Below are positions 4,516-22,741 of a DNA stretch of 52,941 nucleotides, one piece after another (within the stretch, counting starts at the first letter, position 1; every line of letters begins with the position of its first letter). The DNA is from an uncultured Bacillales bacterium (GTDB lineage: Bacteria; Bacillota_I; Bacilli_A; RFN20; CAG-826). The notes under the pieces were generated by a model. That model was not told the origin of the DNA and ran no database searches. It saw nothing but the letters and a program-made list of their open reading frames with translations. The DNA is taken from assembly GCA_947306345.1 (NCBI GenBank), contig CAMZGG010000001.1, positions 1 to 52,941 on the forward strand. Direction: 5' to 3'. A program made the translations under genes and the position numbers.

Positions 4516-4664
4516 ATAAATTATCAAAATCGCAAATCTGTAACATCAACAATCAAAAAAAGTAGAATTGTCGTACTAAAAATCGCAATTTGGCGCCATT
4601 TTTCTTTTTTGTTGTGAATTTCCGCTTGCGCCCATTGTCGCCACGCGTATGATTATATGCATAT

Positions 4665-8806: not shown

Positions 8807-8832
8807 TCTATAATCCTTTATAAAATAAGAAC

Positions 8833-8865
8833 ACTCCGTAGTAGTGATATTACGGAGTTTTTTTA
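8833..8865 (+). terminator. Rho-independent terminator
   Basis: ACTCCGTA (8833..8840) pairs with TACGGAGT (8851..8858), followed by a T7 run. Confidence 0.8.
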
Positions 8866-8925
8866 TTGCCTCCACAAAAATTAGTTCTTTTATCTATTCT
8901 TATTGATGCTACAATATCTAGCGGT

Positions 8926-9762
8926 ATGAATTTTTATAAATGGTTCTTCTTGGAGGAGGGCAGAACTCCTGCTGGTTTATTTTCCCTCTCTCACTTATTA
9001 ACAGTTACGTTAACCCTTGCTGTATTTTTAACTTTAGCGATCTTTTTGGGCAAAAAGTTTAAAGGCGATCCTAAGAAGCAAAACTTAGTTTTGTTAATTG
9101 CTGGTATCGCTATTGTAGCGGTCCAACTATCTAAGAATATTTGGCTACTTTGCGAAACAGATAATGTCTTGGACTGCATAGTGGGTAACTGGCCACTTTA
9201 TTTCTGCGATATTCCAATTTATATCATTCCACTCGCGGCACTAACCAAAGGTCGATTCAAACAGTGGTGCATTGATTTCATGGCCATATGTGGCTTATTA
9301 ATGGGCTTCATGGGCAATTATTTCGCCGGAAACTTATATCCAAGTCACGCCATCATCTCATTCTCCGTTTTTAATGCTTTATTAAATCACTCAATTTCTG
9401 CTTTCGTAGCGTTATTCATTTGGGTGTCTAAGTTAAACAAAATGGAAAAAAGAGATATCCCATTTGTTATCGGTATCCTCTTTACATTTATGACCATTGC
9501 CTTAATCGTTGATTACCTCAACATTCCAATCAACGGTTCCCCACGTAACTTCATGTTCTTCTTTAATGGTGATGGCACTCCGTTCACCTTGTTCCTTAAT
9601 CTCTACGGTGGAACACTCATCCCATATCAAATCACCATTTATGTTTTACAGTGTGGCTACATTGGTTTATTCTACGCTGTTTATTACTGGATTATGGGCT
9701 TACTCAAGAAAAGAGAAGAACACAAAAAACTAAACGCACAAGACTCTACTTTCTCTAACTAA
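8926..9762 (+). CDS. Integral membrane protein, tentatively YwaF/TIGR02206-like
   Basis: The ORF track gives a TTG start at 8866, which overlaps the terminator T-run. The in-frame ATG at 8926 (MNFYKWFF..GLFSLSHLL) matches the usual N-terminus of this family. Seven or eight TM segments. Confidence 0.55.
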   Translation: MNFYKWFFLEEGRTPAGLFSLSHLLTVTLTLAVFLTLAIFLGKKFKGDPKKQNLVLLIAGIAIVAVQLSKNIWLLCETDNVLDCIVGNWPLYFCDIPIYIIPLAALTKGRFKQWCIDFMAICGLLMGFMGNYFAGNLYPSHAIISFSVFNALLNHSISAFVALFIWVSKLNKMEKRDIPFVIGILFTFMTIALIVDYLNIPINGSPRNFMFFFNGDGTPFTLFLNLYGGTLIPYQITIYVLQCGYIGLFYAVYYWIMGLLKKREEHKKLNAQDSTFSN

Positions 9763-9779
9763 GTAGAGTTTTCTTTTTA
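9743..9779 (+). terminator. Probable terminator overlapping the CDS end
   Basis: ACTCTAC (9743..9749) pairs with GTAGAGT (9763..9769), followed by TTTCTTTTT. Confidence 0.5.
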
Positions 9780-9836
9780 AGCATGCTAATATATTCGTAG
9801 AATACATTATAGGTAATCTATTAAGGAGAAAAAACC

Positions 9837-10736
9837 ATGGAAGTTTTTGAAATTGTTTTAAGTACTGGAGAAGTAGTGAAAGGCGCGAAGTGGCTAGTTA
9901 AAAACGGCAAAGCCAATTTTGTCTTTATTACTGGTATGCAAGAATATGCGACAAGATATGAACGTTTAGCCAATTATCTTAATGAAAAAGGCGTTAATGT
10001 TTGGATCTTAGACCATTTTGGTCAAGGCTTAAACGCTCCAACAGAAGATGATTTACAAAAATGGCCAAAGGATGCTTTCGACAAAATCGTTGATGCTTTA
10101 TATCTTACAATCCAAGAAGCAAAGAAAAACGGTTTACCAACCATCCAAGGCGGTCACTCCATGGGTTCATTTACCACCCAAGCAAGATTAGAGAAATATC
10201 CTTTAGCCACAGATAAGACGCTCATCATCGGTAGTAATGGTGGTCAAGGCGCTTTAATGTCTATTGCCGCTTTCTTAGCAAAACTACTCATCCATAAATC
10301 TAACTGGGATAAACCAAATAAGTTCTTCACAGATTTAGGTTTAGGTGGCTATAACAAACAAATCAAGAATCCTAGAACAGGTGTCGACTGGCTTTCATAC
10401 AATGAAAAGAACGTTGATGCCTATGTTGCTGATCCATATTTAGGCCACATGAACACTGGTGGCTTCTGGAGAGAATTCCTTAAAGGAATGGCGACTATCT
10501 GGAAGAAAAAGAATATGAAGAAAGTCTCTAAAGATGAAATCATATTCATCACCTCTGGTGAAGAAGACCCGGTTGGTCAAAATGGTAAAGGTGTGAAATG
10601 GTTAGAAAAAGCCTATAAAGACTTAGGTGTTAATAACGTTACCTTAAAGCTCTATCCACATATGCGTCATGAGATACACAACGAAGACGAATATCTCACA
10701 GTTTATGAGGACTGGGCGAACTTTATTCTCGATTAG
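9837..10736 (+). CDS. Alpha/beta hydrolase (lysophospholipase/monoacylglycerol-lipase-like)
   Basis: GGHSMGS nucleophile elbow and a C-terminal HMRHEIHNE histidine motif. AAGGAG RBS. Confidence 0.8.
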   Translation: MEVFEIVLSTGEVVKGAKWLVKNGKANFVFITGMQEYATRYERLANYLNEKGVNVWILDHFGQGLNAPTEDDLQKWPKDAFDKIVDALYLTIQEAKKNGLPTIQGGHSMGSFTTQARLEKYPLATDKTLIIGSNGGQGALMSIAAFLAKLLIHKSNWDKPNKFFTDLGLGGYNKQIKNPRTGVDWLSYNEKNVDAYVADPYLGHMNTGGFWREFLKGMATIWKKKNMKKVSKDEIIFITSGEEDPVGQNGKGVKWLEKAYKDLGVNNVTLKLYPHMRHEIHNEDEYLTVYEDWANFILD

Positions 10737-10797
10737 TTCTATATAAAAATAAAAATAAATCTTTTTAGTATGCCAAAAGTGGTATACTAACACTGCT

Positions 10798-11643
10798 ATG
10801 CCAGAAGAAGAAGCAATTTTAAGAACACCGTTTGAAAGAAGAATTCACGAAATAGATTTCATCCGTGGTATTTTAATTATCCTTGTAGTTATTGACCACA
10901 TCTTTAACTTCACCATGTCCTTTAACAATGGTTGGGCCGGGGCAGAGCATCTTGAACCATTCTATACAATATTCAAAGTGGCACAGTTCTATTGGGATCA
11001 CCCAGTGAGAATGGTGATACGTTGGATTTGTTTAATTAGTTTCTGCTTTATCAGTGGTATTTCCTGTGCCTTCTCTAGAAGTAATAGTAAAAGAGCACTT
11101 CAAATGGTGGGCATTTGGGCTCTTATCTTTATTGTATCTAATATTATTAGAGGTATGATGTTGACCTTTAAGTGGGGCGATGGCATTACCTGCTTTAGAA
11201 TTGACTTTAACGTGATTGGTGTTTTAGCCTGGTCAACATTATTATATTGTTTCTTTGAAAACAAGAAATGGTACTGGCTATTAGTGGTGGGCCTTATCGG
11301 TTTAGCACTTCATCCATTATGCGTAGAGCTTTCTCGTACTGATTTTGGCCATCAAACATACGTCCCATTCTTATGGAGACCATATGTTAATGAAACATAC
11401 TATCCAGGATCTAGTACAGTCTTACAAGCTGACCATATGCCATTATTCCCATACCTTGGTTTCTTCTTCTTAGGAGCGATGTTATCAAAACTTACTTACG
11501 CGAAAGACAAGAAGTCTTACTTCAAAAGATATAACTGGGAAAGACCAATCTGCTTTGTTGGTCGTCATACCTTAATTATTTATGGTACCCATTTCATCGT
11601 CATTATCGGTATCTTCTTACTCATAGGAGCCTTTGTCGGATGA
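10798..11643 (+). CDS. DUF1624-type membrane acyltransferase-like protein
   Basis: N-terminal EIDFIRGILIILVVIDH motif and multiple TM segments. An extended -10 (TGGTATACT, 10780..10788) sits only 9 nt before the ATG. Confidence 0.6.
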   Translation: MPEEEAILRTPFERRIHEIDFIRGILIILVVIDHIFNFTMSFNNGWAGAEHLEPFYTIFKVAQFYWDHPVRMVIRWICLISFCFISGISCAFSRSNSKRALQMVGIWALIFIVSNIIRGMMLTFKWGDGITCFRIDFNVIGVLAWSTLLYCFFENKKWYWLLVVGLIGLALHPLCVELSRTDFGHQTYVPFLWRPYVNETYYPGSSTVLQADHMPLFPYLGFFFLGAMLSKLTYAKDKKSYFKRYNWERPICFVGRHTLIIYGTHFIVIIGIFLLIGAFVG

Positions 11644-13295
11644 TGACGGAATTAACCATGTATGAGGCCTTTAAAGAGGCCGCGAATAAAGCTCCTCGTG
11701 ATTTAGCCCTTTATTATGAAGGTAAGAGGATTAACTTTAAAACGCTTTTAAAACGCGTCGATATGACCGCGGATATTTTATATAACAGATTAGGAGTGAG
11801 AGAAAACGACGTTGTCGTTATCGCTCAACCAAATATTCCTGAAACAATTGTCCTTTTCTATGCGATTAATAAAATCGGTGCGACCTCTAACTTAATCCAT
11901 CCATTCACGCCATTTAACCAAGTGAAACAAATCATGGACAAGACTAACACTAAAGTGGCGTTTCTTTTCGAACAAAGAATCGCTAAAGAAGTGAAACAAT
12001 ACCGTGAAATTGCTGACCGTATCTATGTCACTCGTATTGAAGATGACTTACCTTTAGTTTCTAAATTCATCTATCACAACTTCATGAACTTTAGAATTAG
12101 AAGAAAATTAGGTAAGATGCCAGCGAGATTCAAATTTGATGGTTTCAAATACACTTATCAATTAAAGCCAACAGGAAAAGAAGTACCTACCGCTAAAATG
12201 GATAAAAATAGATGTTCTGTGTTATTACACAGTGGTTCCACAACTGGTAAACCAAAAACCATCTGTTTAAGTGACTACGCTTTTAACTTTATCTCACAAT
12301 ATGCCTATTCCTTCTTAGCGGTTGATAAAGACAAAATGAAAGGCCATAAGATGCTTAGTGTTTTACCAAGCTTCCACGGCTTTGGTTTATGCATGACGAT
12401 GCACGCTCCATTAGTGAACTCCTTCTCATCCATTCTTTTGCCAAAATTTAAAGCCACAAAAGTGGTGAAGGCGATGAATGACACTAAACTCACATGTATG
12501 TGTGGTGTTCCAACCATTTATGAGAAATTACTTCAAGAACCAACATTCGTTAATAATAAAAACTTAAAGTATTTACATTGTTGCTTCTGTGGTGGTGACT
12601 CCATGCCCGCTGACTTAGAAGAACGCTTTAATAAAGCCATGGAACAAGCAGGTTCTAAATGCCGCTTATTCCAAGGATATGGCTTAACTGAAGCTATTGC
12701 TGTTAACTGCGTTAACACCTTTAACGCTAATCGTTCAGGATCTTTAGGCAAGGCCATGCCAGAAGCTACCTTCAAAGTAGTGGATGAACAAGGCAATGAA
12801 GTTCCTCGTGGTGAATTAGGTGAAATCATCTTCAAGAGTGGCGCGATTATGCTTGGCTACTATCAAGATGAAGAAAGCACAAAGAATTGCATTAAAGATG
12901 GTTACCTCTATACTGGTGACCTTGGCTATATGGATGAAGATGATTTTATCTTCTTCAAGCAACGTAAAAAGAGAGTGGTGAAAGTTTCTGGTGTTGCCGT
13001 CTTCCCAAGTGAAGTCGAACAATTAATCGAATCAATGCCAGAAGTTTCCGCTTGTGCGGCCATCCGTATTCCTGACGCTAAATTACAGAATTCCTTAAAG
13101 GTTTTTGTAGTGGCTAAAGTCGTGGATGAAACCGCGATGAAAGAAAAAATACTTGAGACGTGTCGTAAATATCTCATTAGATGGTCCGTTCCAACTGAAA
13201 TCGAATTCAGAAAAGAATTACCTTTAACAATGCTCGGAAAAGTTAATTTCCGTGAGCTTCAAGAAGAAGAAGACAAAAAACGCGGACTGCTGTGA
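11640..13295 (+). CDS. AMP-dependent synthetase/ligase (acyl-CoA ligase family)
   Basis: AMP-binding motifs LLHSGSTTGKPK, GYGLTE, YTGDLG. Its start overlaps the upstream stop (ATGATGA). Confidence 0.85.
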   Translation: MMTELTMYEAFKEAANKAPRDLALYYEGKRINFKTLLKRVDMTADILYNRLGVRENDVVVIAQPNIPETIVLFYAINKIGATSNLIHPFTPFNQVKQIMDKTNTKVAFLFEQRIAKEVKQYREIADRIYVTRIEDDLPLVSKFIYHNFMNFRIRRKLGKMPARFKFDGFKYTYQLKPTGKEVPTAKMDKNRCSVLLHSGSTTGKPKTICLSDYAFNFISQYAYSFLAVDKDKMKGHKMLSVLPSFHGFGLCMTMHAPLVNSFSSILLPKFKATKVVKAMNDTKLTCMCGVPTIYEKLLQEPTFVNNKNLKYLHCCFCGGDSMPADLEERFNKAMEQAGSKCRLFQGYGLTEAIAVNCVNTFNANRSGSLGKAMPEATFKVVDEQGNEVPRGELGEIIFKSGAIMLGYYQDEESTKNCIKDGYLYTGDLGYMDEDDFIFFKQRKKRVVKVSGVAVFPSEVEQLIESMPEVSACAAIRIPDAKLQNSLKVFVVAKVVDETAMKEKILETCRKYLIRWSVPTEIEFRKELPLTMLGKVNFRELQEEEDKKRGLL

Positions 13296-13301
13296 TATAA
13301 T
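13293..13301 (+). promoter_or_regulatory. Extended -10 element (TGATATAAT) in front of tRNA-Leu
   Basis: TGaTATAAT overlaps the ligase TGA stop, 11 nt upstream of the mature tRNA 5' end. Confidence 0.45.
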
Positions 13302-13312
13302 CATTTTCACAT

Positions 13313-13397
13313 GTGGTCATGGCGGAATTGGTAGACGCGCTGGTCTCAGAAGCCAGTGAGGAAACTCATGGAAGTTCGAGTCTTCTTGGCCACACCA
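13313..13397 (+). tRNA. tRNA-Leu (anticodon CAG)
   Basis: Hand-folded cloverleaf. Acceptor GTGGTCA/TGGCCAC, D arm GCG..CGC, anticodon arm CTGGT-CTCAGAA-GCCAG, long variable arm TGAG-GAAA-CTCA, T arm GGAAG-TTCGAGT-CTTCT, encoded CCA. Confidence 0.9.
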
Positions 13398-13402
13398 ATT
13401 TT

Positions 13403-13861
13403 ATGAATCCCAATCGTTATTCAACTTGTTGTTATTTAAAGAAAGACGAGCAATATTTGCTCCTTTTTCGCAACAAGAAGAAAGTCGATGTGAATAAAGG
13501 CAAATGGATCGGTGTCGGTGGTGGTCTTGAAGGAAAAGAAACACCAAATGAATGCGCTATCCGTGAAGTTAAAGAAGAAACAGGCTTAGATGTTCATAGT
13601 TTGGAATGCGCTGGTGAAGTGGACTTCATCTATGATGGTTACTATGAAAAGATGTATATCTATGAGATCACTGACTTTTCAGGAGAAATCATTGATTGTA
13701 ATGAAGGTGAACTAAGATGGATTCCTATTAAAGACATCTTCAACTACCCAATGTGGGAAGGCGATAAAGTATTCCTACCTTTATTAATAAAACATGAGCC
13801 ATATTTCAGAATTAGACTGACTTATGAAAACGATATTTTAATAAACGCGCAAAAATATTAA
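13403..13861 (+). CDS. NUDIX hydrolase (MutT-like)
   Basis: Nudix box GGGLEGKETPNECAIREVKEETGL. The first 30 codons of ORF 13313..13861 are the tRNA-Leu, so I take the first ATG after it. Confidence 0.8.
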   Translation: MNPNRYSTCCYLKKDEQYLLLFRNKKKVDVNKGKWIGVGGGLEGKETPNECAIREVKEETGLDVHSLECAGEVDFIYDGYYEKMYIYEITDFSGEIIDCNEGELRWIPIKDIFNYPMWEGDKVFLPLLIKHEPYFRIRLTYENDILINAQKY

Positions 13862-13912
13862 TAAAAAAAGATGATTATTTAAATTATTTATGTAATAATA
13901 ACAAAGCGCGCT

Positions 13913-13986
13913 AGGGGTATCGTACAAAGGCAGTACTCCGGTCTCCAAAACCGTCAATGTGGGTTCGATTCCTACTACCCCTGCCA
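13913..13986 (+). tRNA. tRNA-Trp (anticodon CCA)
   Basis: Acceptor AGGGGTA/TACCCCT, anticodon loop CTCCAAA, T arm GTGGG-TTCGATT-CCTAC, encoded CCA. Close to Bacillus-type tRNA-Trp. Confidence 0.9.
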
Positions 13987-14002
13987 TCCAAGGTACTTAA
14001 TT

Positions 14003-14032
14003 CTGATACAAACGTGTCAGATTTTTTGTTTT
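14003..14032 (+). terminator. Rho-independent terminator after tRNA-Trp
   Basis: CTGATAC pairs with GTGTCAG (7 bp including one G-U) around a 4-nt loop, followed by ATTTTTTGTTTT. Confidence 0.7.
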
Positions 14033-14058
14033 ATATGGCAGCAATTTTATTAGATTAT

Positions 14059-14112
14059 GTATACAACAAACGATTAAAAAATATTGAAATGTTGTATACT
14101 TTTATATATAAT
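14059..14112 (+). promoter_or_regulatory. Near-consensus promoter (TTGAAA-17 nt-TATAAT); a perfect 10-bp inverted repeat flanks the -35 box, and its downstream arm lies in the spacer
   Basis: GTATACAACA (14059..14068) and TGTTGTATAC (14090..14099) are exact reverse complements. -35 at 14084..14089 and -10 at 14107..14112. The ATG at 14119 follows 6 nt later. Confidence 0.6.
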
Positions 14113-14118
14113 ATAGAT

Positions 14119-14433
14119 ATGAATAGTGTATTAAAAGGTGTGCTTGAAGAAGAATTAGAAAGAAATCTCCAAAAACAGAGAGTGTTTTCTAATGAATTAG
14201 CAAAGTATCCAAAAGGATCTTTAGTCGTAGTAAAGGTTCACGGAGATCAATATCTTTACCGCAAGTATCGTGATGGTGACAAAGTAGCTTCTATTTACGT
14301 CGGGCCAGTCAAGAGCGATGAAGCAAAGAAAGCTTATGAAGATAGGGATAAATACATCAAACTTAAACAGGATATTAAAGATCTAAAAGAAGAAGAAAAG
14401 AAATTAAGAAAGGCGGTAGAAATATATGGTTAA
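14119..14433 (+). CDS. Small (104 aa) charged protein with C-terminal coiled-coil; candidate antitoxin/regulator partner of the downstream nucleotidyltransferase
   Basis: ORF 13957..14433 starts inside tRNA-Trp, so I use the internal ATG at 14119, which lies at the predicted +1 of the promoter. It overlaps the next gene by 8 nt (ATGGTTAA). Confidence 0.55.
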   Translation: MNSVLKGVLEEELERNLQKQRVFSNELAKYPKGSLVVVKVHGDQYLYRKYRDGDKVASIYVGPVKSDEAKKAYEDRDKYIKLKQDIKDLKEEEKKLRKAVEIYG

Positions 14434-15091
14434 ATTCGAAAGCAAAATGCTAGACATTATTGAAGCGTTACACAAAAGTGGCTTGTTAAAAAACTGTATC
14501 ATTTCTGGCAGTTGGGCCATGTTCTTTTATAAAGAAATATTTGAAGGGTTTATTCCTCCTATCGCAACAACAGACTTCGACATCTTTCTTCCAAACGTCT
14601 CTAGAATCAAGGAAGGAAATATTAACAAGTTATTGATAGATTTAGATTATTTGCGAGATGATGATAGCCTCACTGGCAAAACAAAATACTATTCAAAAGA
14701 TGGATTTGAAATTGAATTTTTAACCGTGCCAGATAGAACCATGAATAATGTGATAAAAATCCATTCTATTGGTATTGGTGCAGAAGCATTGCCTAAAATG
14801 AAAGTGGCGGAGTGGAATTATATAACCGTTAAGTACAATGGATATGAAGTAAATGTTCCTTCGCCAGCGAGTTACTGTTTGCAAAAATTGTTGATTAACA
14901 AAGAAAGAGAAGAAGTCAAGAAAGCTAAGGATATCGATGCGGTAAAATACATCTTAAAATACGTACTTGCTTCGAAGAAATATAAAGAAGAGTTTATAGA
15001 ATCTTTTAACAGTGCTCCTAAAAAATGGAAAAAAGCTATTAAGGAAACAATTGAAGCGAATGAGCTTAATACATTAATAGAGTTACAATAA
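14426..15091 (+). CDS. Minimal nucleotidyltransferase-fold protein (Pol-beta superfamily; AbiEii/MenT/GSU2403-like, tentative)
   Basis: hG[GS]...DxD pattern: IISGSW, then 20 residues, then TTDFDIF (14507..14581). The 221-aa size and an overlapping small upstream partner also fit. Confidence 0.55.
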   Translation: MVKFESKMLDIIEALHKSGLLKNCIISGSWAMFFYKEIFEGFIPPIATTDFDIFLPNVSRIKEGNINKLLIDLDYLRDDDSLTGKTKYYSKDGFEIEFLTVPDRTMNNVIKIHSIGIGAEALPKMKVAEWNYITVKYNGYEVNVPSPASYCLQKLLINKEREEVKKAKDIDAVKYILKYVLASKKYKEEFIESFNSAPKKWKKAIKETIEANELNTLIELQ

Positions 15092-15111
15092 GCAGTTGGT
15101 AGTAATCGATT

Positions 15112-15921
15112 ATGGAATACAAAACAAAGCATATGCACGCCAATTCATCTTGCTCATACTGCGCTATTAGTTACATGGTGCAAACTTTTGGTATTGATGT
15201 AATGGATGTAGATATTGCTAAAGAAATCAATCTCCATCTAATGTTTGAGAAGAACAATGGCCAATATAATTCCGGTTTTATGTTACAAAATAAAAAGTGG
15301 TTCGACTTGTTTCTAAATCCCAAAGGCTTAGAACTAGTAGAAACAGAGTTAGATAAGAAGTCCATTATTGATTTTCTCAAAGAAAACAAAAACGTTATGC
15401 TTGGACTTAAAACTTCTCAAGGCAAGCACGCTGTTGTTTTAACCGAATATAAAAACGATCGTTTCAAATTCTTTAACCCGAGACACGAAGGCAGTGGTGA
15501 TGAAGAATATATTGTTTTAACCGAAGATAAGCTTGCCGATTTATTGGACGATAGAATATCTATTGCAAGAATAATTCTATGCGAAAACAAAAGCGTTGAT
15601 TTAAAAGACGGTCTTATCAACTCCCTTTCTGCTCTTGAGTCATATAATCGAGATTTGAAATCATTTATTGAAAGCAATGCAAACAGAAAAGCATATCGTG
15701 ATAATTTGGATTTGTTCAGGCCACTTTTATTGGATGGGTTAACTATGATGGAAGTAGTTAACGAAAGCAATCTAGCGTCTTTAATGAAACAATCGCAAAA
15801 ACAATTGTTGTCTTTTATTAGAGGGACAGAAAATGCTTTAAATCAAAAAGCTTTTTTGATAGCCGTTAATGAAATAATAGCTTATTGGGAGAACATGGTA
15901 AAAAATGCTTTGAAAATGTAA
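15112..15921 (+). CDS. Papain-fold (C39-like/BtrH_N-like) cysteine peptidase domain protein with helical C-terminal half (tentative)
   Basis: Ordered Cys..His..Asn triad candidates with C39-like spacing: NSSCSYCAISYMVQTFG (C14/C17), GKHAVVL (H106), FKFFNP (N122). Confidence 0.45.
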   Translation: MEYKTKHMHANSSCSYCAISYMVQTFGIDVMDVDIAKEINLHLMFEKNNGQYNSGFMLQNKKWFDLFLNPKGLELVETELDKKSIIDFLKENKNVMLGLKTSQGKHAVVLTEYKNDRFKFFNPRHEGSGDEEYIVLTEDKLADLLDDRISIARIILCENKSVDLKDGLINSLSALESYNRDLKSFIESNANRKAYRDNLDLFRPLLLDGLTMMEVVNESNLASLMKQSQKQLLSFIRGTENALNQKAFLIAVNEIIAYWENMVKNALKM

Positions 15922-16010
15922 AAAGTTCTTTTTGTCTCAAAAAAGTTCTTTGTATTATTCTCGTAGTAGTAAGACACAACCGTATGTAAATGTCGATACA
16001 ATTCGGCATT

Positions 16011-16481
16011 TTATTTTGATTTTTCGAAGTATTCTTTGATATAAAAATCAGCGAGTTCGTCGGCTTCTTTGTTCAATTGTTTTTCTGAAAGCTTTTCATC
16101 TTGTTTGAAAAACCACTGGTAATACATCGAAATTCCTAAACAAACATAATATTCAATTTCTATTAAGAAATTGTTATCAGATTCAAGTGCGGGAACATAT
16201 AATTTAGGATACATTTTCTTTTTTGCTTCTTGATTTCCGTAGAAAGCGCAATACCCTTTTTCACCATTTTCTGAATTAATAAACACTTCTTCGTTTGTAA
16301 AACAAACATTAAAACGAATAGGAAAATAAAACTTTTTCCTTAAATAGCTTATAAGTTTTGATAATTCGTTTTTTGTTTTTTCATCAATCCCACTTTCAAA
16401 AGAAAAACGAACGCCGTTATATTTGCAAATATTCAAATAGTTTTTCTTATCTTTTTTATTAATCCAGTCAAATTTTGCCAT
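16011..16481 (-). CDS. Hypothetical protein (156 aa), orphan
   Basis: Long ORF convergent with the cassette. No motif I recognise. It could be an immunity-like protein, but that is speculation. Confidence 0.5.
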   Translation of the reverse strand: MAKFDWINKKDKKNYLNICKYNGVRFSFESGIDEKTKNELSKLISYLRKKFYFPIRFNVCFTNEEVFINSENGEKGYCAFYGNQEAKKKMYPKLYVPALESDNNFLIEIEYYVCLGISMYYQWFFKQDEKLSEKQLNKEADELADFYIKEYFEKSK

Positions 16482-16687
16482 CTTTAAAAACCAACATTAT
16501 TATACAAAATAGCAATAGACATCTCCACTTAGTTGTTTCTACACAAGAATAACACCACAGCATAATATAGAGGGGCATGAAGCAAAGCCCCAGGGTATGA
16601 AGCTGCAGGTTTTGTATTAAAATAGTTCTACAATACCAAAATAGAACATAACATTCTGGTAACACAGGATGTTTTTTCTTTATACTC

Positions 16688-16730
16688 TTGACACAATGGC
16701 TATCTATTAGTAATATACCTATTAGTAATA
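16688..16730 (+). promoter_or_regulatory. PadR-gene promoter (TTGACA-17 nt-TAATAT) overlapped by a 12-nt direct repeat (CTATTAGTAATA x2)
   Basis: -35 at 16688..16693 and -10 at 16711..16716. Exact repeats at 16704..16715 and 16719..16730. Confidence 0.6.
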
Positions 16731-16746
16731 CGAGAAGGAGGAGAAT

Positions 16747-17367
16747 ATGGAATATATCATCCTAAGTATGCTTCTATGTAAAGCAATGACTGTTTATGAA
16801 ATAAGAAACTACATTATCAAGAACTTAACAACTGTCTGTAGCAATAGTTTAGGCAGTATCCAAACCGCAATTAAAAAGATGTTATCCAAAGGATATATCG
16901 AAGTTAATGAATATGTAGAAAATGGTTTAAACAAAAAGAAATATAGCATCACTGATAAAGGTTTAGCGGAATATAAGAAATGGGTAGGAACTCCTATTAA
17001 CTTATCAAAGATGACCAATATGGAAGAAAGCAAATTATTCTTCTTAGGTGTCGCTCCTAAAGAAAAACGTATCGCATTCCTAGTGGCCCTAAATAAAGAT
17101 CTAGAAGAACAATTAAAGGCGTTAACCGCGATTCAAGAGTTCGCTTTGACCGCTAAAGATGCCGTTATCAAAGATAACGTTTCAAACATTTCTAAGGAAA
17201 GCAAATACGTTAATAATCTTTTATCCGTCTCTAAAGAAAAAGATTTAAGTGCTGTTTTACTTAATACATATGACTATCAAATGTCATTACTTAAATACGG
17301 TATCGAAAGAACTAAATTCGATTTAGCTTTTTATAAAAACCTTCTTAAGGAAGAAAGGAATAGATAA
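16747..17367 (+). CDS. PadR-family transcriptional regulator (long form)
   Basis: N-terminal winged-helix pattern ILSMLLCKAMTVYEIRNYI and a helical C-terminal extension. GAAGGAGGAG RBS. Confidence 0.75.
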   Translation: MEYIILSMLLCKAMTVYEIRNYIIKNLTTVCSNSLGSIQTAIKKMLSKGYIEVNEYVENGLNKKKYSITDKGLAEYKKWVGTPINLSKMTNMEESKLFFLGVAPKEKRIAFLVALNKDLEEQLKALTAIQEFALTAKDAVIKDNVSNISKESKYVNNLLSVSKEKDLSAVLLNTYDYQMSLLKYGIERTKFDLAFYKNLLKEERNR

Positions 17368-17369
17368 AT

Positions 17370-17753
17370 ATGCAAGCTTTAGCGTTTATTGGAGCAGCGT
17401 TGCTCGCTGTTGTTATTGTTATGTCAATTTTATTAATATGTGGACTCCCTTTGGGAGAATTCTCTATGGGTGGAAGATTTGGCAAAATCTGGCCTCCTAA
17501 GATTAGACTTCTTGGCGTTACACAGTTATTATCCCAAATTTTTGCCTTATATATCATCCTTGCAGCGGGTACAGGCATTCCTTATTTTGTTAATTACACA
17601 GTCACAAGAGTGATTTGCTTTGTGTTCGCGGTTTTCTTCTTCGGTAATACATTCTTAAATATCATTTCTCCAAGTAAGAAAGAAAAGTTTGTGATGACAC
17701 CAATGTCACTCATCTCCGCTGTTTGTTTCTTAGTTGTGGGAATCTTAATGTAA
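17370..17753 (+). CDS. Small membrane protein (4 TM), co-transcribed with PadR
   Basis: Starts 2 nt after the PadR stop. Four hydrophobic segments. Confidence 0.6.
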   Translation: MQALAFIGAALLAVVIVMSILLICGLPLGEFSMGGRFGKIWPPKIRLLGVTQLLSQIFALYIILAAGTGIPYFVNYTVTRVICFVFAVFFFGNTFLNIISPSKKEKFVMTPMSLISAVCFLVVGILM

Positions 17754-17755
17754 CT

Positions 17756-18340
17756 ATGAATAACATTTTAGAATTTGGTGAATTATCACTCACTCAAAAA
17801 GAAGAAGCAGTGGAACTATTCATGGATGGCTTTGGTCAATTCATGACTTTCTCAAAAGACAAGGAACTTAAAAAGAAACTTTTTATCCAGATTTTTGATT
17901 CTAAATTATTCCTCTGTTATCTAGAAGATAATAAGGTTCTTGGTCTTATGGGATTAGGCACTAATAAAGTTAGACCAATCAACTTTAAAAAAGAGGTCTG
18001 CCAAGAACTCTTTGGCAAATGTAAAGGCGCAATTATTAGTAAGCAAATGAATGCTACTTTCCAGAAAATCGTGGTTAAGGGTGATAAAGAATTATACCTA
18101 GACACTTTAGTCACGCATCCTTCCTATAGAAGCAAAGGCATAGGTTCAATCCTTGTTAATAAAGCATGCTCTTTAAAAGAGTATAATTCAATCATCGTGG
18201 AAGTGTTTTCTAAGAATACCAAAGCTATTAGTTTTTATGAAAAGAATGGTTTTGTTATTACTAAGGAACATAAGTTCTCAATGATGAGATTATTAGGTTC
18301 TGGTTATCCTATCACGATGACAAAGCATATAAAGGACTGA
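17756..18340 (+). CDS. GNAT-family N-acetyltransferase
   Basis: Motif A region THPSYRSKGIGSILVNKA. I take the ATG at 17756, just after the upstream TAA, rather than the overlapping ORF-track start at 17723. Confidence 0.75.
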   Translation: MNNILEFGELSLTQKEEAVELFMDGFGQFMTFSKDKELKKKLFIQIFDSKLFLCYLEDNKVLGLMGLGTNKVRPINFKKEVCQELFGKCKGAIISKQMNATFQKIVVKGDKELYLDTLVTHPSYRSKGIGSILVNKACSLKEYNSIIVEVFSKNTKAISFYEKNGFVITKEHKFSMMRLLGSGYPITMTKHIKD

Positions 18341-18393
18341 ATATAGACTATTAACTCTGATTTTTGCTATATTATTTGAGAGCAAGTAGATTT

Positions 18394-19056
18394 ATGGCGG
18401 ATATCATCATCGTTGAAGATAATGTAGAAATCGGTAATCTCTTATGTGATTTTTTACGCAAAGAGAAATATTCAGTTTGTTTAGCCACAAGTGGTGAAAA
18501 GGCATTAGAACTTTTCGAAAAATATGGGGCTAAGATTTTTGTTTTAGATATTATGCTTCCTGGTATTGATGGTTTAGCGGTCACTTCTAAAATCCGTGAA
18601 ACCTCAAACGCTTATATCATTATCGCCAGCGCTAAATCCGAAAAAGAAGATAAACTCGCTGGTCTTAATCTAGGCGCAGATGACTATGTTGAAAAGCCAT
18701 ATGATGTTGATATCTTATTAGCAAAAATCAAAGGCGTCTTTAAAAGAAAATACGCCATTGAAGAGATACACGAAGGTAATCTCACCCTTAACACTGTTAA
18801 TAATGTTTTAAAAGTAAATAACAAACCAGTTACTGTGACTGATAAGGAATTCGAGTTATTAAAACTCTTAATTGAAAACAAAGGTACAACCTTAAAGAAA
18901 GAATATATCTTCAATACCATCTGGGGTAGTGATAGTGAATCAGAGCCTCAAACATTAACTGTTCATATCAAATGGTTAAGAGAAAAGATTGAAGAAGATC
19001 CAAAGAACCCTAAACACATCATCACCGTTTGGGGAAACGGCTACCGCTATGAGTAA
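18394..19056 (+). CDS. OmpR-family response regulator
   Basis: Receiver domain (IIIVEDN, VLDIMLPGIDG) plus winged-helix output (TVWGNGYRY). ATG at 18394 preferred over the TTG at 18364. Confidence 0.9.
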   Translation: MADIIIVEDNVEIGNLLCDFLRKEKYSVCLATSGEKALELFEKYGAKIFVLDIMLPGIDGLAVTSKIRETSNAYIIIASAKSEKEDKLAGLNLGADDYVEKPYDVDILLAKIKGVFKRKYAIEEIHEGNLTLNTVNNVLKVNNKPVTVTDKEFELLKLLIENKGTTLKKEYIFNTIWGSDSESEPQTLTVHIKWLREKIEEDPKNPKHIITVWGNGYRYE

Positions 19057-20266
19057 ATTTAGAAGGAATTCGATTATTGTTTTAATCGTGCAGCTATTGC
19101 TCATCGCTGTTTTTAATGTTGTTATATTCCTTAATCAACCAAAGAGTGAAGATAGACAGCACCGTGTTGATATTAACCGTATCCAATTAGCGATGTCTGA
19201 AGGCAAAGATGTGAACGCTGATGACTATGAAACAGTTATTAGAATCGTTCATTACGATAACAACTATCAAACCAATAATGACTATACAGTCATCAATGTA
19301 AATGGCGAATTATATTCTATTGAATATAAAATCAAAGACATTGATAACACACCAGTAATCTATATGAATATTGGATTAGGCGTAATGTTCTTATTAACCG
19401 CCGGTGTATTAATCTATATCGATTTACGAGTGCTCAAGCCATTCCATACATTAAGTAACTACTCCACAGAACTTGCTAAAGGTAATCTTTCTAAGCCGAT
19501 GAAAGAAGAAAAGAATAAGAACTTTGGTAAGTTTGTCTGGGGCATGGATATGCTTAGAGAAACTTTAGAAACAAATAAGAAGAACGAATTAAAGTTACAA
19601 AAGGATAAGAAGACTTTAATCCTTTCTATTTCTCATGATATTAAAACACCTTTATCAGCGATCAAACTTTATTCTAAAGCCTTAAAAGAAGGCATCTATG
19701 ATACAGAAGAAAAGAGAATTGAAGCGCTTAATGGCATTGATAAAAACGCGCAAGAAATCGAAAAGCACGTTTCCGATATCGTCACTGCTTCTAGAGAAGA
19801 TTTCTTAAATCTTACTGTGCATATGGGTGAGTTATATCTCAAAGATTTAATTAATAAAATTAATATTCTTTATAAGGAGAAGTTCTCTGTTCTTCATGTT
19901 GATTTCAAGATTGAAGAATTTGATAACTGCTTAATTAAAGGTGATGCCGATCGTTTAGAAGAAGTCTTACAAAACATTTTAGAGAACGCGATTAAATATG
20001 GTGATGGTCGTTACGTTAATATCAAAATTGATGAAGAAGAGAACTATAAACTAATTCAAATCACTAACTCAGGCTCTTCTTTAAAGGAAGAAGAACTACC
20101 ACATCTATTTGATTCTTTCTATCGCGGTAGTAACGCTGAAAAGAAAGATGGTAGTGGTCTTGGCTTATACATTGCTAAAAACCTCATGAAAATGATGGGT
20201 GGAGACGTTTTTGCTAAAATTAATAACGACGAATTCATCGCAGTTACTGTAGTAAAGAAATGCTAA
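19049..20266 (+). CDS. Sensor histidine kinase (2 TM, about 85-aa external loop)
   Basis: H-box SISHDIKTPLSAI, N-box ENAIKYG, G-box GSGLGLYIA. The start overlaps the RR stop (ATGAGTAA). Confidence 0.9.
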   Translation: MSKFRRNSIIVLIVQLLLIAVFNVVIFLNQPKSEDRQHRVDINRIQLAMSEGKDVNADDYETVIRIVHYDNNYQTNNDYTVINVNGELYSIEYKIKDIDNTPVIYMNIGLGVMFLLTAGVLIYIDLRVLKPFHTLSNYSTELAKGNLSKPMKEEKNKNFGKFVWGMDMLRETLETNKKNELKLQKDKKTLILSISHDIKTPLSAIKLYSKALKEGIYDTEEKRIEALNGIDKNAQEIEKHVSDIVTASREDFLNLTVHMGELYLKDLINKINILYKEKFSVLHVDFKIEEFDNCLIKGDADRLEEVLQNILENAIKYGDGRYVNIKIDEEENYKLIQITNSGSSLKEEELPHLFDSFYRGSNAEKKDGSGLGLYIAKNLMKMMGGDVFAKINNDEFIAVTVVKKC

Positions 20267-20353
20267 AACAATAAATTTTTTGCATTTAATGATTATTTAA
20301 TAATTTGTTTTTTATAATTGAGCCATCCTACTGAAAAGGAGGGCTTATTATTT

Positions 20354-22726
20354 ATGTTTCTAAGGATATTAAAAAAAGATATCAAGCGTAAGAAAACCAT
20401 GAATATCATCATGTTGGTATTCATCATCTTAGCGTCAATGTTTGTCGCTAGTGGTCTTAATAACGTTATTACTATTGCTAATGGCACCAATTATTTCTTT
20501 GACCAAGCTGGTCTTGGTGATTATATTGCTGCAAGAAAAGGTTCAGGTAGTTCAACTGAGACATTTGATGATATCTTACCAACCATTGGTGAAATCAAAT
20601 CATATCGTGTTGATGAAGTCATCTTTGCCACTAAAGAAACAGTGGAAACAGAAAAAGGTGAACAAGCAAAATTCGACAACACTATGCTTATTCAAAGCTT
20701 AGAAGATAGTGGTCTTAATTATTTCGATATTAATGATAAAGTGGCCACAATCGTTCCTGAAGGTCATTTCTATTCATCTTATAGATTTGCTAAAGATAAC
20801 AATTTAAAGTCTGGCGATAAGATGATTGTTAAGAGTAATGACGTCCGTCTTAACTTAACATTTGATGGCACTCTTAAAGATGCCTTATTCGGTTCCGATA
20901 TGCTTAATAACGTCAGATTGTTCTTAAGTAGAGCGGACTATACCAACTTAAGAGACAATGGTGTCTCTGAACCAGGGATGATTGGTGAATTTGCTTATAT
21001 TGACACTGACGATGTGGCAGCGGTTGATGTTGCTTTGACAAAGAAGTGCCCAACCTTAATGTTAAATAGACCAAGAGCGACTATTGAATCAGCTTACTTC
21101 ATGAACATGGTTTTAGCGTTCGTGACCTTGATCTTAAGTGTCTGCTTAATTATTGTTTCGTTCGTTATCTTAAGATTTACCATCACCTTTACCATCACTG
21201 AAGAATACCGTGAAATCGGTGTTATGAAAGCTATTGGTATTAGAGATATCAAGATTAAGAGCTTATATTTAACTAAATATTTAGTTATCGCTGTCTTAGG
21301 CTCACTAATAGGCTTTGGTGTTAGCTTCCCATTCTCTAAGTTGCTATTAGGTAGTGTTACCAAAATGATGGTCCTTGGTAATGGCTTAGGTATCATTCCA
21401 AATATCATTGGTTCATTATTGGTCGTCTTATCTATCTTGGGCTTTGCCTACTTAGCCACAGGTGTAGTTAAAAAAGCCACTCCAGTTGACGCTATTAGAA
21501 AAGGTCAAACTGGTGAAAGATTCAAAAAGAAATCAAAACTCAAATTATCTAAGAGCAGAACAAATTCCATTACCTTTATGGCGTGCAATGATGTTCTTAG
21601 TAATAAAAAGAAATATATCGCAGTGGCGTCCGTCTTCGCCCTTTGTACAGCCTTTGTCCTTGTCATGACAAACACTGTTAACACAATGAAGGGTGATGGC
21701 TTAATCGATTCATTCTCCGCTCGTAGTGATCTCTACTACACAGATCAAGACAAACAGATGTCCTTCATGCACGAAGGTGGTAATGAAGAGATTAAAGAAT
21801 ACATGACAAAGGTTGAAAATGATTTAACCGATATGGGTATGCCAGGCCATATCTTCGTCGATGCCCAATACATCTTCAAAATCACAAGTAATGACAATGA
21901 ATATTCCATCTCTTGCCAACAAGGCATTGGTTCCACAATCGATATGTACACATTCACGCAAGGTACAGCACCTCGAAATATGTACGAGATTGCCATTACA
22001 CCAACAATCTCTAGTAAGATTAACGCCCATATTGGTGACACCGTGACAGTTGACTATGGTACAGGTCCTGTTCAAACAACAGTTACAGCGTACTATCAAA
22101 CCATGAACTGGATGGGTGAAGTCATTAGAATCCATGAAAGCGCTCCAACAAACTTAAAGAATTGTACTTCTTGGATGGCTTTCCAAATCAATTTCACTGA
22201 TCATCCATCAGCTAATACCATCAAAGAACGCAAACAAAAACTTATTGAATATCTAGGTGGTAAAGAAGTGCAACTTCCTAACGAATATCAAGCGGATTGT
22301 ATCGGTGTTGTCCCAACGATGGAAACAGTGCAAATATCACTTCTCGCTATTACCTTAGTGGTGGTCACACTCGTGGTTGTCTTAATGGAACGTTCATTCA
22401 TCAGCGATGAAAAGAACGAAATAGCGATTCTAAAAGCCGTTGGCTTCAAGGACCGAAGAATTATTCTCTACCACATGATAAGGTTTGGCATTGCCACTTT
22501 AGTGGCGGTCATCTTCGCTGGAGCGATATCCATTCCATTAACATATGCGACTATTGGACCAATCTTCTTATCAATGGGTATGTCCACGATGAAGTTTATC
22601 ATTGACCCACTCAGTGTCTTCGTGATGTATCCACTCATCATCTTAGCCGCTGCGTTATTAATCGCATTTATCACATCGCTTATCACAAAAACAATTAAGA
22701 GTTCTGATACTGCAAGTATCGAATAA
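20354..22726 (+). CDS. ABC transporter permease, FtsX/MacB-type with large extracytoplasmic domains
   Basis: Two FtsX-like modules (EIGVMKAIGIRD; EIAILKAVGFKD). AAGGAGG RBS before the ATG at 20354. Confidence 0.85.
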   Translation: MFLRILKKDIKRKKTMNIIMLVFIILASMFVASGLNNVITIANGTNYFFDQAGLGDYIAARKGSGSSTETFDDILPTIGEIKSYRVDEVIFATKETVETEKGEQAKFDNTMLIQSLEDSGLNYFDINDKVATIVPEGHFYSSYRFAKDNNLKSGDKMIVKSNDVRLNLTFDGTLKDALFGSDMLNNVRLFLSRADYTNLRDNGVSEPGMIGEFAYIDTDDVAAVDVALTKKCPTLMLNRPRATIESAYFMNMVLAFVTLILSVCLIIVSFVILRFTITFTITEEYREIGVMKAIGIRDIKIKSLYLTKYLVIAVLGSLIGFGVSFPFSKLLLGSVTKMMVLGNGLGIIPNIIGSLLVVLSILGFAYLATGVVKKATPVDAIRKGQTGERFKKKSKLKLSKSRTNSITFMACNDVLSNKKKYIAVASVFALCTAFVLVMTNTVNTMKGDGLIDSFSARSDLYYTDQDKQMSFMHEGGNEEIKEYMTKVENDLTDMGMPGHIFVDAQYIFKITSNDNEYSISCQQGIGSTIDMYTFTQGTAPRNMYEIAITPTISSKINAHIGDTVTVDYGTGPVQTTVTAYYQTMNWMGEVIRIHESAPTNLKNCTSWMAFQINFTDHPSANTIKERKQKLIEYLGGKEVQLPNEYQADCIGVVPTMETVQISLLAITLVVVTLVVVLMERSFISDEKNEIAILKAVGFKDRRIILYHMIRFGIATLVAVIFAGAISIPLTYATIGPIFLSMGMSTMKFIIDPLSVFVMYPLIILAAALLIAFITSLITKTIKSSDTASIE

Positions 22727-22741
22727 TAGGAGGAAACAATC

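Follow-up and report, generated by a model that had tools for sequence, protein, structure and literature searches.

Four genes (P1 to P4) that follow a tRNA-Trp gene in contig CAMZGG010000001.1 of an uncultured Bacillales bacterium together form one strain-specific insertion, placed exactly at the CCA end of the tRNA. The whole stretch of 52,941 nucleotides that was analysed is called the window below, and the features discussed are listed in table 1. The explanation that we favour, with moderate confidence, is that of a mobile insertion of two cassettes, the first of which would encode a variant of the MenAT/AbiE type of toxin-antitoxin (TA) system, consisting of the small protein P1 and the minimal nucleotidyltransferase (NTase) P2, together with a co-transcribed papain-fold enzyme (P3), and the second an unrelated protein (P4). 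An earlier note on this DNA had described the four open reading frames (ORFs), the 8-nt overlap between the first two and the convergent orientation of the fourth, all of which hold, and had proposed that they make up a single functional module. The link among the four genes is stronger than first seen in one respect, as they constitute a single indel; a defence or toxin role is what we infer.

The insertion at tRNA-Trp and its empty site

A look-up of the PadR protein encoded downstream of the insertion retrieved six contigs (L104-L109), all with an identical PadR protein, whose flanks are 98.4-99.3% identical to positions 8092-13986 and 16636-23367 of the window. The gene order in these contigs is AMP-ligase, NUDIX, tRNA-Trp, PadR, GNAT and two-component system, and none of the four genes of the insert is present. 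Because the site is empty in six conspecific contigs, where it reads tRNA-Trp...CTGCCA/AAATAGAAC...PadR with nothing between (the slash marks the junction), the four genes are to be regarded as one indel. The empty-site junction, ...CCCCTGCCA/AAATAGAACATAAC..., corresponds in the window to a left junction, ...CCCCTGCCA/TCCAAGGTAC..., and a right junction, ...CTACAATACCA/AAATAGAAC.... Homology to the six contigs stops at 13986, the last base of the tRNA CCA; since these three nucleotides are common to both junctions, the limits 13984-16635 are equally valid. The empty site bears out two earlier suspicions, namely that the genes were inserted at the tRNA and that they have no link to the flanking metabolism. 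The AT-richness of the region, also suspected before, is confirmed by windowed GC content: the insert stands at 0.316 against a mean of 0.364 for the whole window and falls within the lowest 0.6% among windows of equal size, and its right flank is likewise fairly AT-rich (GC 0.328).

Integrase islands that target tRNA genes carry an integrase gene and, at their far end, repeat the 3′ part of the tRNA in direct orientation; neither feature was detected here. The att-repeat search of the tRNA-Trp site revealed no copy of the tRNA 3′ end at up to 3 mismatches, and long direct repeats of the att type were not found at the insertion. No integrase-family match was obtained for P1-P4 in Pfam, NCBIfam or PHROGs; this screen for recombinases covered the four proteins and not the remainder of the window. 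The earlier failure to find an att repeat or an integrase stands, with the recombinase part limited to P1-P4. In the Rfam search only two tRNAs were matched, and no further RNA family was detected in the insertion.

The insert sits between tRNA-Trp and its native terminator, which lies 11 nt past the tRNA in the empty site, and the result is a swap of terminators: a new hairpin (hairpin B) is brought in at the 5′ end of the insert and the native one is left at its 3′ end. The design principle would be that the insertion gives the tRNA a new terminator and reuses the tRNA's own. The hairpin terminator that now follows the tRNA spans 14002-14021 and the displaced one 16650-16673, with slightly wider limits given in table 1. 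Hairpin B is missing from the empty site, and it also precedes the candidate operator of P1 in L012, L020, L100 and L110/L111.

P1 and P2 as a conserved pair

P2 matches the family NTP_transf_8 (PF12281) with E 1.6e-19 (71.2 bits at a cut-off of 26.3) over profile positions 4-215 of 218, and the same family is found on all 120 listed P2 homologues. The hGS...DxD signature on which the earlier note had based its assignment, with PF12281 as the family to be expected, is invariant in 30 homologues of 50-90% identity, in which G28, S29, D50, D52, E97, Q153, K154, R161, K168 and D169 do not vary. The motif hG[GS]...DxD, a third carboxylate and the predicted fold together place P2 among the Pol-beta-type NTases. 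The AlphaFold model (pLDDT 92.6) matches the NTase structures 5uvd, 5kqj, 4fo1, 8an4 and 2ewr; the top Foldseek match is the fungal NTase-like protein 5uvd (E 7e-6, TM 0.56), and the list includes ANT(2′′)-Ia (E 1.2e-4), LnuA (E 3.4e-4) and the toxin MenT1 (8an4/8an5, E 3e-4, TM 0.45-0.56).

To follow the gene context, NTase loci were taken from metagenomes and GTDB genomes (Bacilli, Erysipelotrichaceae, Izemoplasmatales and other metagenome-assembled genomes of Bacillota), and their six-frame ORFs were scored with profiles. A P1 homologue lies directly upstream of the NTase gene and overlaps it in each of the 19 locus records from which the NTase was recovered, even where NTase identity is as low as 36%; these records represent about ten distinct contexts, L001-3 and L005-7 being near-identical copies. 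The overlap comprises 8 nt in the window (ATGGTTAA), and a stop/start overlap of the TATGAxTAA type is kept in every lineage. The genes that flank the pair vary by genome and include peptidase M18/QueT, rpsI/LRR protein, Opp/ABC transporters and others. P1 and P2 are an old, self-contained unit.

P1 itself has 161 homologous clusters. About a third of them carry a precomputed match to PF20586.4, which is weak where shown; with the current Pfam model of DUF6788 (PF20586) the P1 of the window gives no match, and only one of the 23 aligned members reaches E 0.037. An alternative, longer ORF starting at 13957 would overlap tRNA-Trp, and 14119 is therefore the likely start. The dN/dS of P1 is 0.05-0.16.

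Upstream of P1 there is a perfect 10-bp inverted repeat, GTATACAACA-N21-TGTTGTATAC, with arms at 14059-14068 and 14090-14099. An inverted repeat is present in this place at every locus where the region is covered, and its sequence varies with the P1 clade, of which four can be distinguished: the arms are TGTATACAACA/TGTTGTATACA in the group of the window, TTAAACAACA/TGTTGTTTAA in L005, TTGTACAAC/GTTGTACAA in L014 and L015, and TGTGCTACA/TGTAGCACA in L016, L018 and L019. Because this candidate operator co-varies with P1, P1 would be its DNA-binding partner. The right arm fills the spacer of a TTGAAA-17-TATAAT promoter, the -10 box of which ends 6 nt ahead of the P1 ATG, and a Shine-Dalgarno sequence is absent (window 14107-14121); owing to this spacing and to the missing Shine-Dalgarno sequence, the transcript of the P1 operon is probably leaderless. 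In the distant clades L014-L019 a spacer with GAGGA or GGGTGA is present before P1. The operator sequence has no occurrence in IMG/VR.

Overlapping genes, a small upstream protein, a palindrome in the promoter and a variable context are the elements of a generic type II-like TA architecture, and all of them are found here. As far as can be judged from sequence, the anatomy of P1-P2 is that of an autoregulated TA operon, and the earlier comparison of the pair with TA systems gains support from the conserved coupling, the co-evolving palindrome, the changing context and the repeated decay of the NTase described below. Under the explanation that we favour, cassette 1 (13987-15976) would be one operon, the 5′ hairpin of which now terminates the tRNA transcript. 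P1, as a small dimer-forming protein, would bind the inverted repeat, repress its own operon and neutralise P2, and P2 would arrest growth on depletion of P1 by adding nucleotides to the 3′ end of RNA, most likely to the acceptor ends of tRNA. P3 would be co-transcribed and would probably form an acyl-thioester intermediate, followed by hydrolysis or transfer of the acyl or peptidyl group, and cassette 2 (15977-16638) would carry P4.

Loss of the NTase

The NTase has been deleted or broken three times, and P1 is intact each time. In L008, L100 and L101 a deletion has occurred between two AAAACAAAAT repeats, one where the NTase gene begins and one where the P3 gene begins; it leaves MV(I)RF(K)-KTKYMH and retains an 8-nt overlap. 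A separate deletion in L102 joins P1 in frame to P3 (P0124, 374 aa, 3228-4352, ...AIYRVNEYKTKYMH...). In L019 (3741-4399) the NTase carries an early nonsense codon and a frameshift downstream of an intact P1. The repeated loss of the NTase with retention of P1 indirectly supports the toxicity of P2, as far as such a property can be read from gene decay. The occurrence of P1-P2-P3, P1-P2 and P1-P3 variants at the same chromosomal site constitutes a natural experiment on the need for P1 once the NTase is gone.

Comparison with MenAT and AbiE

MenAT systems, such as MenA1-MenT1 of M. tuberculosis, resemble P1-P2 in coupling a minimal NTase to a small protein encoded upstream, and the antitoxin MenA1 is very small (7.4 kDa) and has no known DNA-binding domain (PMC10435456, PMC11375011). 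MenT1 is among the best structural matches of P2. Transcriptional autoregulation is absent from MenAT1 (PMC10435456, PMC11375011), whereas P1-P2 has a co-varying candidate operator. Furthermore, P2 belongs to NTP_transf_8 and not to DUF1814, the spacer between G[GS] and DxD is 20 residues long rather than 15, and P1 is unrelated to the MenA families.

AbiE is likewise bicistronic, and its first product, AbiEi, has been shown to repress through inverted repeats (PMC3985639), as P1 would do; both systems are found on mobile DNA. The four-motif layout of AbiEii is hG[GS]x15DhD for motifs I-II, K-x6-R for motif III and +DxxD for motif IV (PMC3985639). Aligned by eye rather than by profile, P2 has GS-x20-DFD, K154-x6-R161 and K168-D169-x-D, a layout analogous but not identical to that of AbiEii, with counterparts of motifs I-II, of K-x6-R and of an acidic motif of the +DxD type; K154-x6-R161 is invariant and has the same spacing as K173/R180 of AbiEii (PMC3985639). 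However, AbiEi is a protein of about 200 aa with a winged helix-turn-helix (HTH) and a C-terminal domain (COG5340), whereas P1 has 104 aa and matches neither AbiEi-family nor HTH-family models (Pfam, NCBIfam, PADLOC). At the sequence level P2 does not match AbiEii, and a search of the PDB with the P2 family profile gave no MenT or AbiEii match; the PDB sequence searches with P2 and P3 singly and with the family profiles of all four proteins found nothing. P2 has no relatives in 50,697 phage records, 72,556 plasmid records or IMG/VR.

Several points weigh against a TA system with P3 as mere cargo. No DNA-binding domain was recognised in P1 with Pfam, the only match being a weak one to Arm-DNA-bind_3 (E 0.095), and no model of PADLOC (PADLOC-DB 2.0), NCBIfam or PHROGs matches P1-P4. 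P2 has no Pfam match to AbiEii/DUF1814 (PF08843) at E<=1, and for this reason it is not a member of the DUF1814 family; PF08843 and PADLOC had both been named in the earlier note as checks, and both came back empty. In Foldseek the antibiotic NTases ANT(2′′)-Ia and LnuA score as well as MenT1 does, with modest TM-scores for all of them. The comparators are without exception metagenome contigs, in which an individual lesion could stem from misassembly. Finally, P1 is still under purifying selection after the loss of the NTase (dN/dS 0.16 at dS 0.39 between L008 and L100, which share the deletion). A mere antitoxin should decay under these circumstances, and P1 therefore has a function that is independent of the NTase, which points to a role towards P3 that is left unexplained if P3 is only cargo. 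P1 would at least be the repressor of the promoter that drives P3, and possibly it acts directly towards P3 as well.

The Foldseek values of ANT(2′′)-Ia and LnuA, equal to or better than that of MenT1, lead to the alternative that P2 is a small-molecule NTase that modifies an antibiotic or a metabolite, with P1 as its repressor, and that the unit is a cassette for resistance or detoxification. Integrons carry ANT(2′′)-Ia and some of the lnu genes in the form of cassettes, and P2 similarly resides in a mobile cassette with its own promoter. This alternative is nevertheless improbable, considering that a 104-aa partner co-evolves with the NTase and overlaps it without exception over deep divergence, a coupling that to our knowledge is not usual for resistance genes, that the NTase is repeatedly lost and P1 kept, that the K-x6-R and KDxD motifs behind the active site resemble those of AbiEii and that none of the 72,556 plasmids holds a relative.

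It is less probable still that the roles are reversed, with the NTase as the antitoxin, as MntA in HepT-MntA, and P1 or P3 as the toxin. P2 is a minimal NTase, and such NTases act as antitoxins in HEPN/MNT modules (PMC7641770). However, no HEPN-family match was obtained for P1, P3 or P4 in the Pfam, NCBIfam and PADLOC scans, in which the Rx4-6H motif was not searched for explicitly; the small protein is encoded upstream, beside the operator, which is the antitoxin-first order; and the NTase decays while P1 is retained, the reverse of the pattern that a toxic P1 should leave.

If P1-P2 is a TA pair, it would provide the first functional assignment for the NTP_transf_8 and DUF6788-like families, and the toxin type represented by the MenT and AbiEii NTases would extend to a family unrelated in sequence, with a new and very small DNA-binding partner. 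No published work was found under the names NTP_transf_8, PF12281, DUF6788 or PF20586.

P3, a papain-fold enzyme, and its association with P1-P2

The earlier note had assigned P3 to the C39/BtrH type of papain folds. At the level of the fold this assignment is right, with high confidence from the model; Pfam does not place P3 in a C39 family. The AlphaFold model of P3 (pLDDT 95.2) consists of a C39-like N-domain (1-156) and a five-helix C-domain (165-268). Its best full-length Foldseek match is CtaG (9qvl, TMq 0.63, E 4.6e-7), followed by the C39 domains of PCAT1, ComA and LahT on the N-terminal 150 residues (TMt 0.64-0.74, probability 1.0). N11, S12, S13, C14, H106 and N122, as well as LFRPLLLDG in the C-terminal part, are invariant or nearly so in an alignment of 37 homologues. 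Membership in the C39 and C39-like families (PF03412, PF13529) was not found, and the fold with its ordered Cys/His/Asn was: Peptidase_C39_2 gives E 0.0021 and 19.1 bits, below the cut-off of 24, it matches only one of the 37 family members, and none of the 75 homologous clusters of P3 carries a Pfam domain. There is no hydrophobic stretch at the N-terminus. Among viral models Foldseek returned only generic papain-fold lysins and peptidases (TM<=0.41), and P3 relatives are absent from the phage and IMG/VR collections, the plasmid collection not having been searched with P3.

CtaG is a papain-like ligase of closthioamide biosynthesis (PMC12865890; PDB 9qvl), and CtaG, BtrH and AsbE combine a papain-like N-domain with a helical C-domain and a Cys-His-Asp triad (PMC12865890). 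P3 shares this bipartite architecture with its catalytic triad, although its identity to CtaG is 11%, the third residue of the triad is Asn instead of Asp and its length is 269 aa against 312. Unlike these proteins, P3 has no carrier-protein, adenylating-enzyme or biosynthetic-cluster genes near it or among the recurrent neighbours of 80 relatives. The C39 domains of PCAT1, ComA and LahT superpose on the N-terminal 150 residues and have the same order and spacing of Cys...His-x15-Asn/Asp; in contrast to the C39 exporters, however, P3 lacks a fused ABC transporter and has an additional helical domain, and there is no conserved transporter or peptide-precursor gene beside its relatives. The statement of the earlier note that a papain-fold protein is not part of the AbiE and MenAT systems agrees with the descriptions of these systems, from which such a protein is absent (PMC3985639, PMC10435456, PMC11375011).

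P3 is solitary in 79 of the 80 metagenome loci found with the P3 profile, the single exception being L020 (67% identity), where P1-P2 lies upstream, and all homologues at <=47% identity are without P1-P2 and have heterogeneous neighbours. Clustering of the neighbours in 82 loci did not reveal a conserved partner, no family being present in more than 15 loci; the recurrent neighbours are housekeeping or mixed genes (ABC/FtsX, kinase, response regulator, Ogt, macro domain, GyrA). Since P3 is mostly solitary, it needs no partner and is probably not toxic alone. Two relatives, P0137 and P0139, have an N-terminal extension with two predicted membrane helices, and P0195 has a C-terminal SAM-methyltransferase domain; these extensions were considered as hidden fusions to P1 and rejected, none of them being P1-like.

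In the closest P3 sub-clade (>=65% identity) the situation is different, as P1 lies upstream in every recovered context. The arrangement P1-P2-P3 is found in the window, in L020 and in L110/L111/L113, which form the most abundant cluster, and P1-P3 without the NTase in L008/L009/L100/L101/L102. Downstream of the trio lies one of three things, namely P4, a hairpin-B unit or an abhydrolase and then a serpin, and the trio is found at two different tRNAs; on these grounds it moves as a unit. P2 and P3 are only about 20 nt apart, and the first terminator comes past the boundary motif A described below. Most P1-P2 modules, on the other hand, are without P3. P3 has been added to P1-P2 in one lineage and has travelled with the pair ever since, dependent on the P1 promoter. 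Of the co-occurrence that the earlier note wished to see checked, the conserved P1-P2 pair and the trio in the closest P3 sub-clade were found, whereas the P3 family is otherwise solitary and P4 is absent elsewhere.

These observations bring in the main rival of the explanation that we favour, a three-component system in which P1 is the shared repressor or neutraliser of both the NTase and P3, or in which P3 processes P1, P2 or the substrate of the NTase, for instance through deacylation of aminoacyl-tRNA that lets the NTase extend the 3′ end. The recurrence of the trio as one unit, with three or more downstream contexts and at two tRNAs, the short gap between P2 and P3 with a terminator only past motif A, the 8-nt coupling of P1 to P3 that persists after NTase loss with a P1 dN/dS of 0.16, the in-frame fusion P0124 and the presence of papain-fold toxins among the PDB matches of P3 (9l5u and CdiA-CT 8ssk) are all consistent with such a system. 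We consider it unlikely, however, given that neither P1-P2 nor a conserved neighbour accompanies P3 in 79 of the 80 metagenome loci or in any homologue at <=47% identity, and that most P1-P2 modules are in turn without P3. The fusion in L102 may also be a by-product of deletion, as P3 retains an internal Met, and the retention of P1 may reflect repression of the operon or protection against NTase copies elsewhere in the genome.

Cassette boundaries and arrays at tRNA ends

The first cassette ends in motif A, a sequence of 27 nt with the consensus TTGTATYA-N16-(A/C)CA, and the second in the related motif A′, the last base of which is the indel junction with respect to L104-L109. Copies of motif A follow P3 and unrelated genes in L008, L012, L020, L100-L103 and L110-L113; they are always on the strand of the module, and a hairpin with a T-run always comes next. 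The six loci compared after P3 (window, L020, L100, L008, L102, L103) are homologous up to the last base of motif A and unrelated past it, and the blastn homology between syntenic loci ends at this same base (L100 5884, L008 6887, L101 3071), with different genes beyond.

The left ends of the units are equally precise. In L110/L111 a P1-P2-P3 unit directly abuts the CCA of tRNA-Thr(ggt), ...GGGGGCACCA/TCTAAGTATTAAT...hairpin, in the same way as in the window at tRNA-Trp, ...CTGCCA/TCCAAGGTACTTAAT...hairpin. Five related genomes share this tRNA-Thr(ggt) and the synteny upstream of it and diverge straight after the CCA (L008 3872, L012 2515, L100 4158, L102 2059, L110 324); in at least four of them a terminator hairpin comes next, after a short stretch of sequence. 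The end of tRNA-Thr seeds a hypervariable array, like the tRNA-Trp site of the window. P1-P2 modules with the same layout are also found directly after tRNA-His (L001) and tRNA-Ile (L004). In L004 (5511-7055) the module lies between tRNAs: tRNA-Ile is found about 107 nt before it, and the genes for tRNA-Val, tRNA-Thr and tRNA-Leu begin about 106 nt past it.

Taken together, the boundaries suggest that the genes are organised as swappable units, each with a 5′ hairpin, genes and a motif A, which are stacked from the CCA ends of tRNAs, and that the insertion in the window consists of two such units. The closest known concept would be a tRNA-seeded island that grows by serial integration, by analogy with the tycheposons of Prochlorococcus, in which variable genes likewise extend from a tRNA 3′ end as tandem units with a short recurring boundary element (bioRxiv 10.1101/2020.12.28.424599). 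Units are present or absent between close strains, as in tycheposons and, conceptually, in integron cassette arrays. However, tycheposons use integrases and partial-tRNA att repeats (bioRxiv 10.1101/2020.12.28.424599), whereas motif A is not a partial tRNA, only CA/CCA is common at the junctions, the units measure 0.6-2 kb and there is no tyrosine recombinase in the insertion; none was noticed among the called genes of the array flanks, which were not screened systematically. Unlike in integron cassettes, no consistent attC-like hairpin is predicted at motif A. Two origins of the motif were considered and rejected: as a partial tRNA copy, its alignment to tRNA-Trp and tRNA-Thr is no better than that of shuffled sequences, and as an attC-like folded site together with hairpin B, it yields only the terminator stem (z-scores -0.9 to -2.8) and no common larger structure. 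Motif A was not found in IMG/VR, and IntI was not seen near the cassettes, in contigs rather than complete genomes.

The mobile elements of uncultured gut and rumen Bacilli are poorly known, and the base-precise junctions at the tRNA CCA together with the 27-nt motif could explain the shuffling of accessory genes in these bacteria. A more far-reaching possibility, which we put forward only tentatively, would combine these arrays with the variants of the first cassette: a single repressor and neutraliser, P1, would stand over two unrelated effectors, a MenT-like NTase and a CtaG-like enzyme, either of which can be kept alone with P1, and the units of 0.6-2 kb would belong to an undescribed cassette system of uncultured gut Bacilli that is free of a recombinase in cis and inserts after a tRNA CCA or after the previous motif.

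P4 and the second cassette

The proposal that all four genes form a single defence module with a functional P4 draws on their presence in one indel, and it is the least probable of the explanations considered. No P4 homologue was found in the 100 sequences scanned (99 loci and the window), so that P4 never co-occurs with the other genes elsewhere; motif A and a terminator separate it from P3; the HExxH motif is lost in the P4 of the window; and PADLOC gives no match. P4 lies behind the cassette boundary and is for that reason regarded as a passenger, unrelated to P1-P3 and, to judge from its sequence, probably inactive. Nor is it an orphan, as had been supposed: an exhaustive search recovered homologues in 64 representative clusters, 25 of them at E<=1e-10, and several other members of the family have lost HExxH as well. 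P4 has no match in Pfam or the PDB. Members of the family have about 150 aa, and some occur in tandem or fusion forms, including one fusion to HEAT repeats.

Table 1. Positions of the features discussed (in the window unless a contig is named)
Feature	Position	Strand	Basis and remarks
tRNA-Trp (CCA)	13913..13986	+	ARAGORN; Rfam tRNA 55.8 bits; insertion joined on the left at its terminal CCA (13984-13986)
Strain-specific insertion, 2,652 bp, two cassettes	13987..16638	.	Comparison with empty-site contigs
Hairpin B, TCTGATACAAACGTGTCAGA and T-run	14002..14031	+	Terminator scan; brought by the cassette, now 3′ of tRNA-Trp
Candidate operator, perfect 10-bp inverted repeat	14059..14099	+	Read from the sequence
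Promoter of sigma-70 type, TTGAAA-17-TATAAT	14084..14112	+	Promoter scan; 11/12 matches, best of the region
P1, small protein, 104 aa, borderline DUF6788	14119..14433	+	ORF; putative autorepressor and neutraliser of P2
P2, minimal nucleotidyltransferase, 221 aa, NTP_transf_8	14426..15091	+	Pfam PF12281; putative toxin
P3, cytoplasmic two-domain papain-fold enzyme, 269 aa	15112..15921	+	C14/H106/N122; five-helix C-domain with LFRPLLLDG
3′ end of cassette 1: two AAAAGTTCTTT direct repeats, then motif A (15950-15976, TTGTATTATTCTCGTAGTAGTAAGACA, 27 nt)	15922..15976	+	Locus comparison
Hairpin terminator opening cassette 2	15988..16011	+	Terminator scan; closes the P1-P2-P3 operon; adjoins the stop codon of P4
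P4, 156 aa, unnamed family with consensus HExxH (HELTHYFQW)	16011..16481	-	ORF; GISMY at this place in the window copy
Motif A′ (TTGTATTAAAATAGTTCTACAATACCA), right end of the insertion	16612..16638	+	Motif A copies of L100 and L008 are of this type
Native tRNA-Trp terminator	16650..16683	+	Terminator scan; shifted 2.65 kb by the insertion
Motif A copies outside the window	L008 6861, 7845; L012 5541; L020 1964; L100 5858; L101 3045, 4009; L102 4366; L103 883, 2932; L110 2287, 3252		

Minor observations on the arrays

Short direct repeats are located just upstream of motif A, namely two copies of AAAAGTTCTTT at 15922-15953 in the window and three at 5810-5860 in L100; at a second site of this kind, L103 2895-2935, the repeated sequence is AAACGGTTCC, in two copies. 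Cassettes bounded by motif A also carry other genes, such as those for a 446-aa protein and a SWIM zinc-finger protein (L103 1067-2880) or for a 514-aa protein and a zinc-ribbon protein (L012 3523-5521), and the P1 gene of L008 has a gene for a DUF1016/YhcG nuclease upstream of it. In L102 a GNAT gene (4448-4877, - strand) is found in inverted orientation directly after the P1-P3 cassette, with 72% nucleotide identity to the GNAT gene of the window (17890-18319, + strand), which belongs to the conserved right flank.

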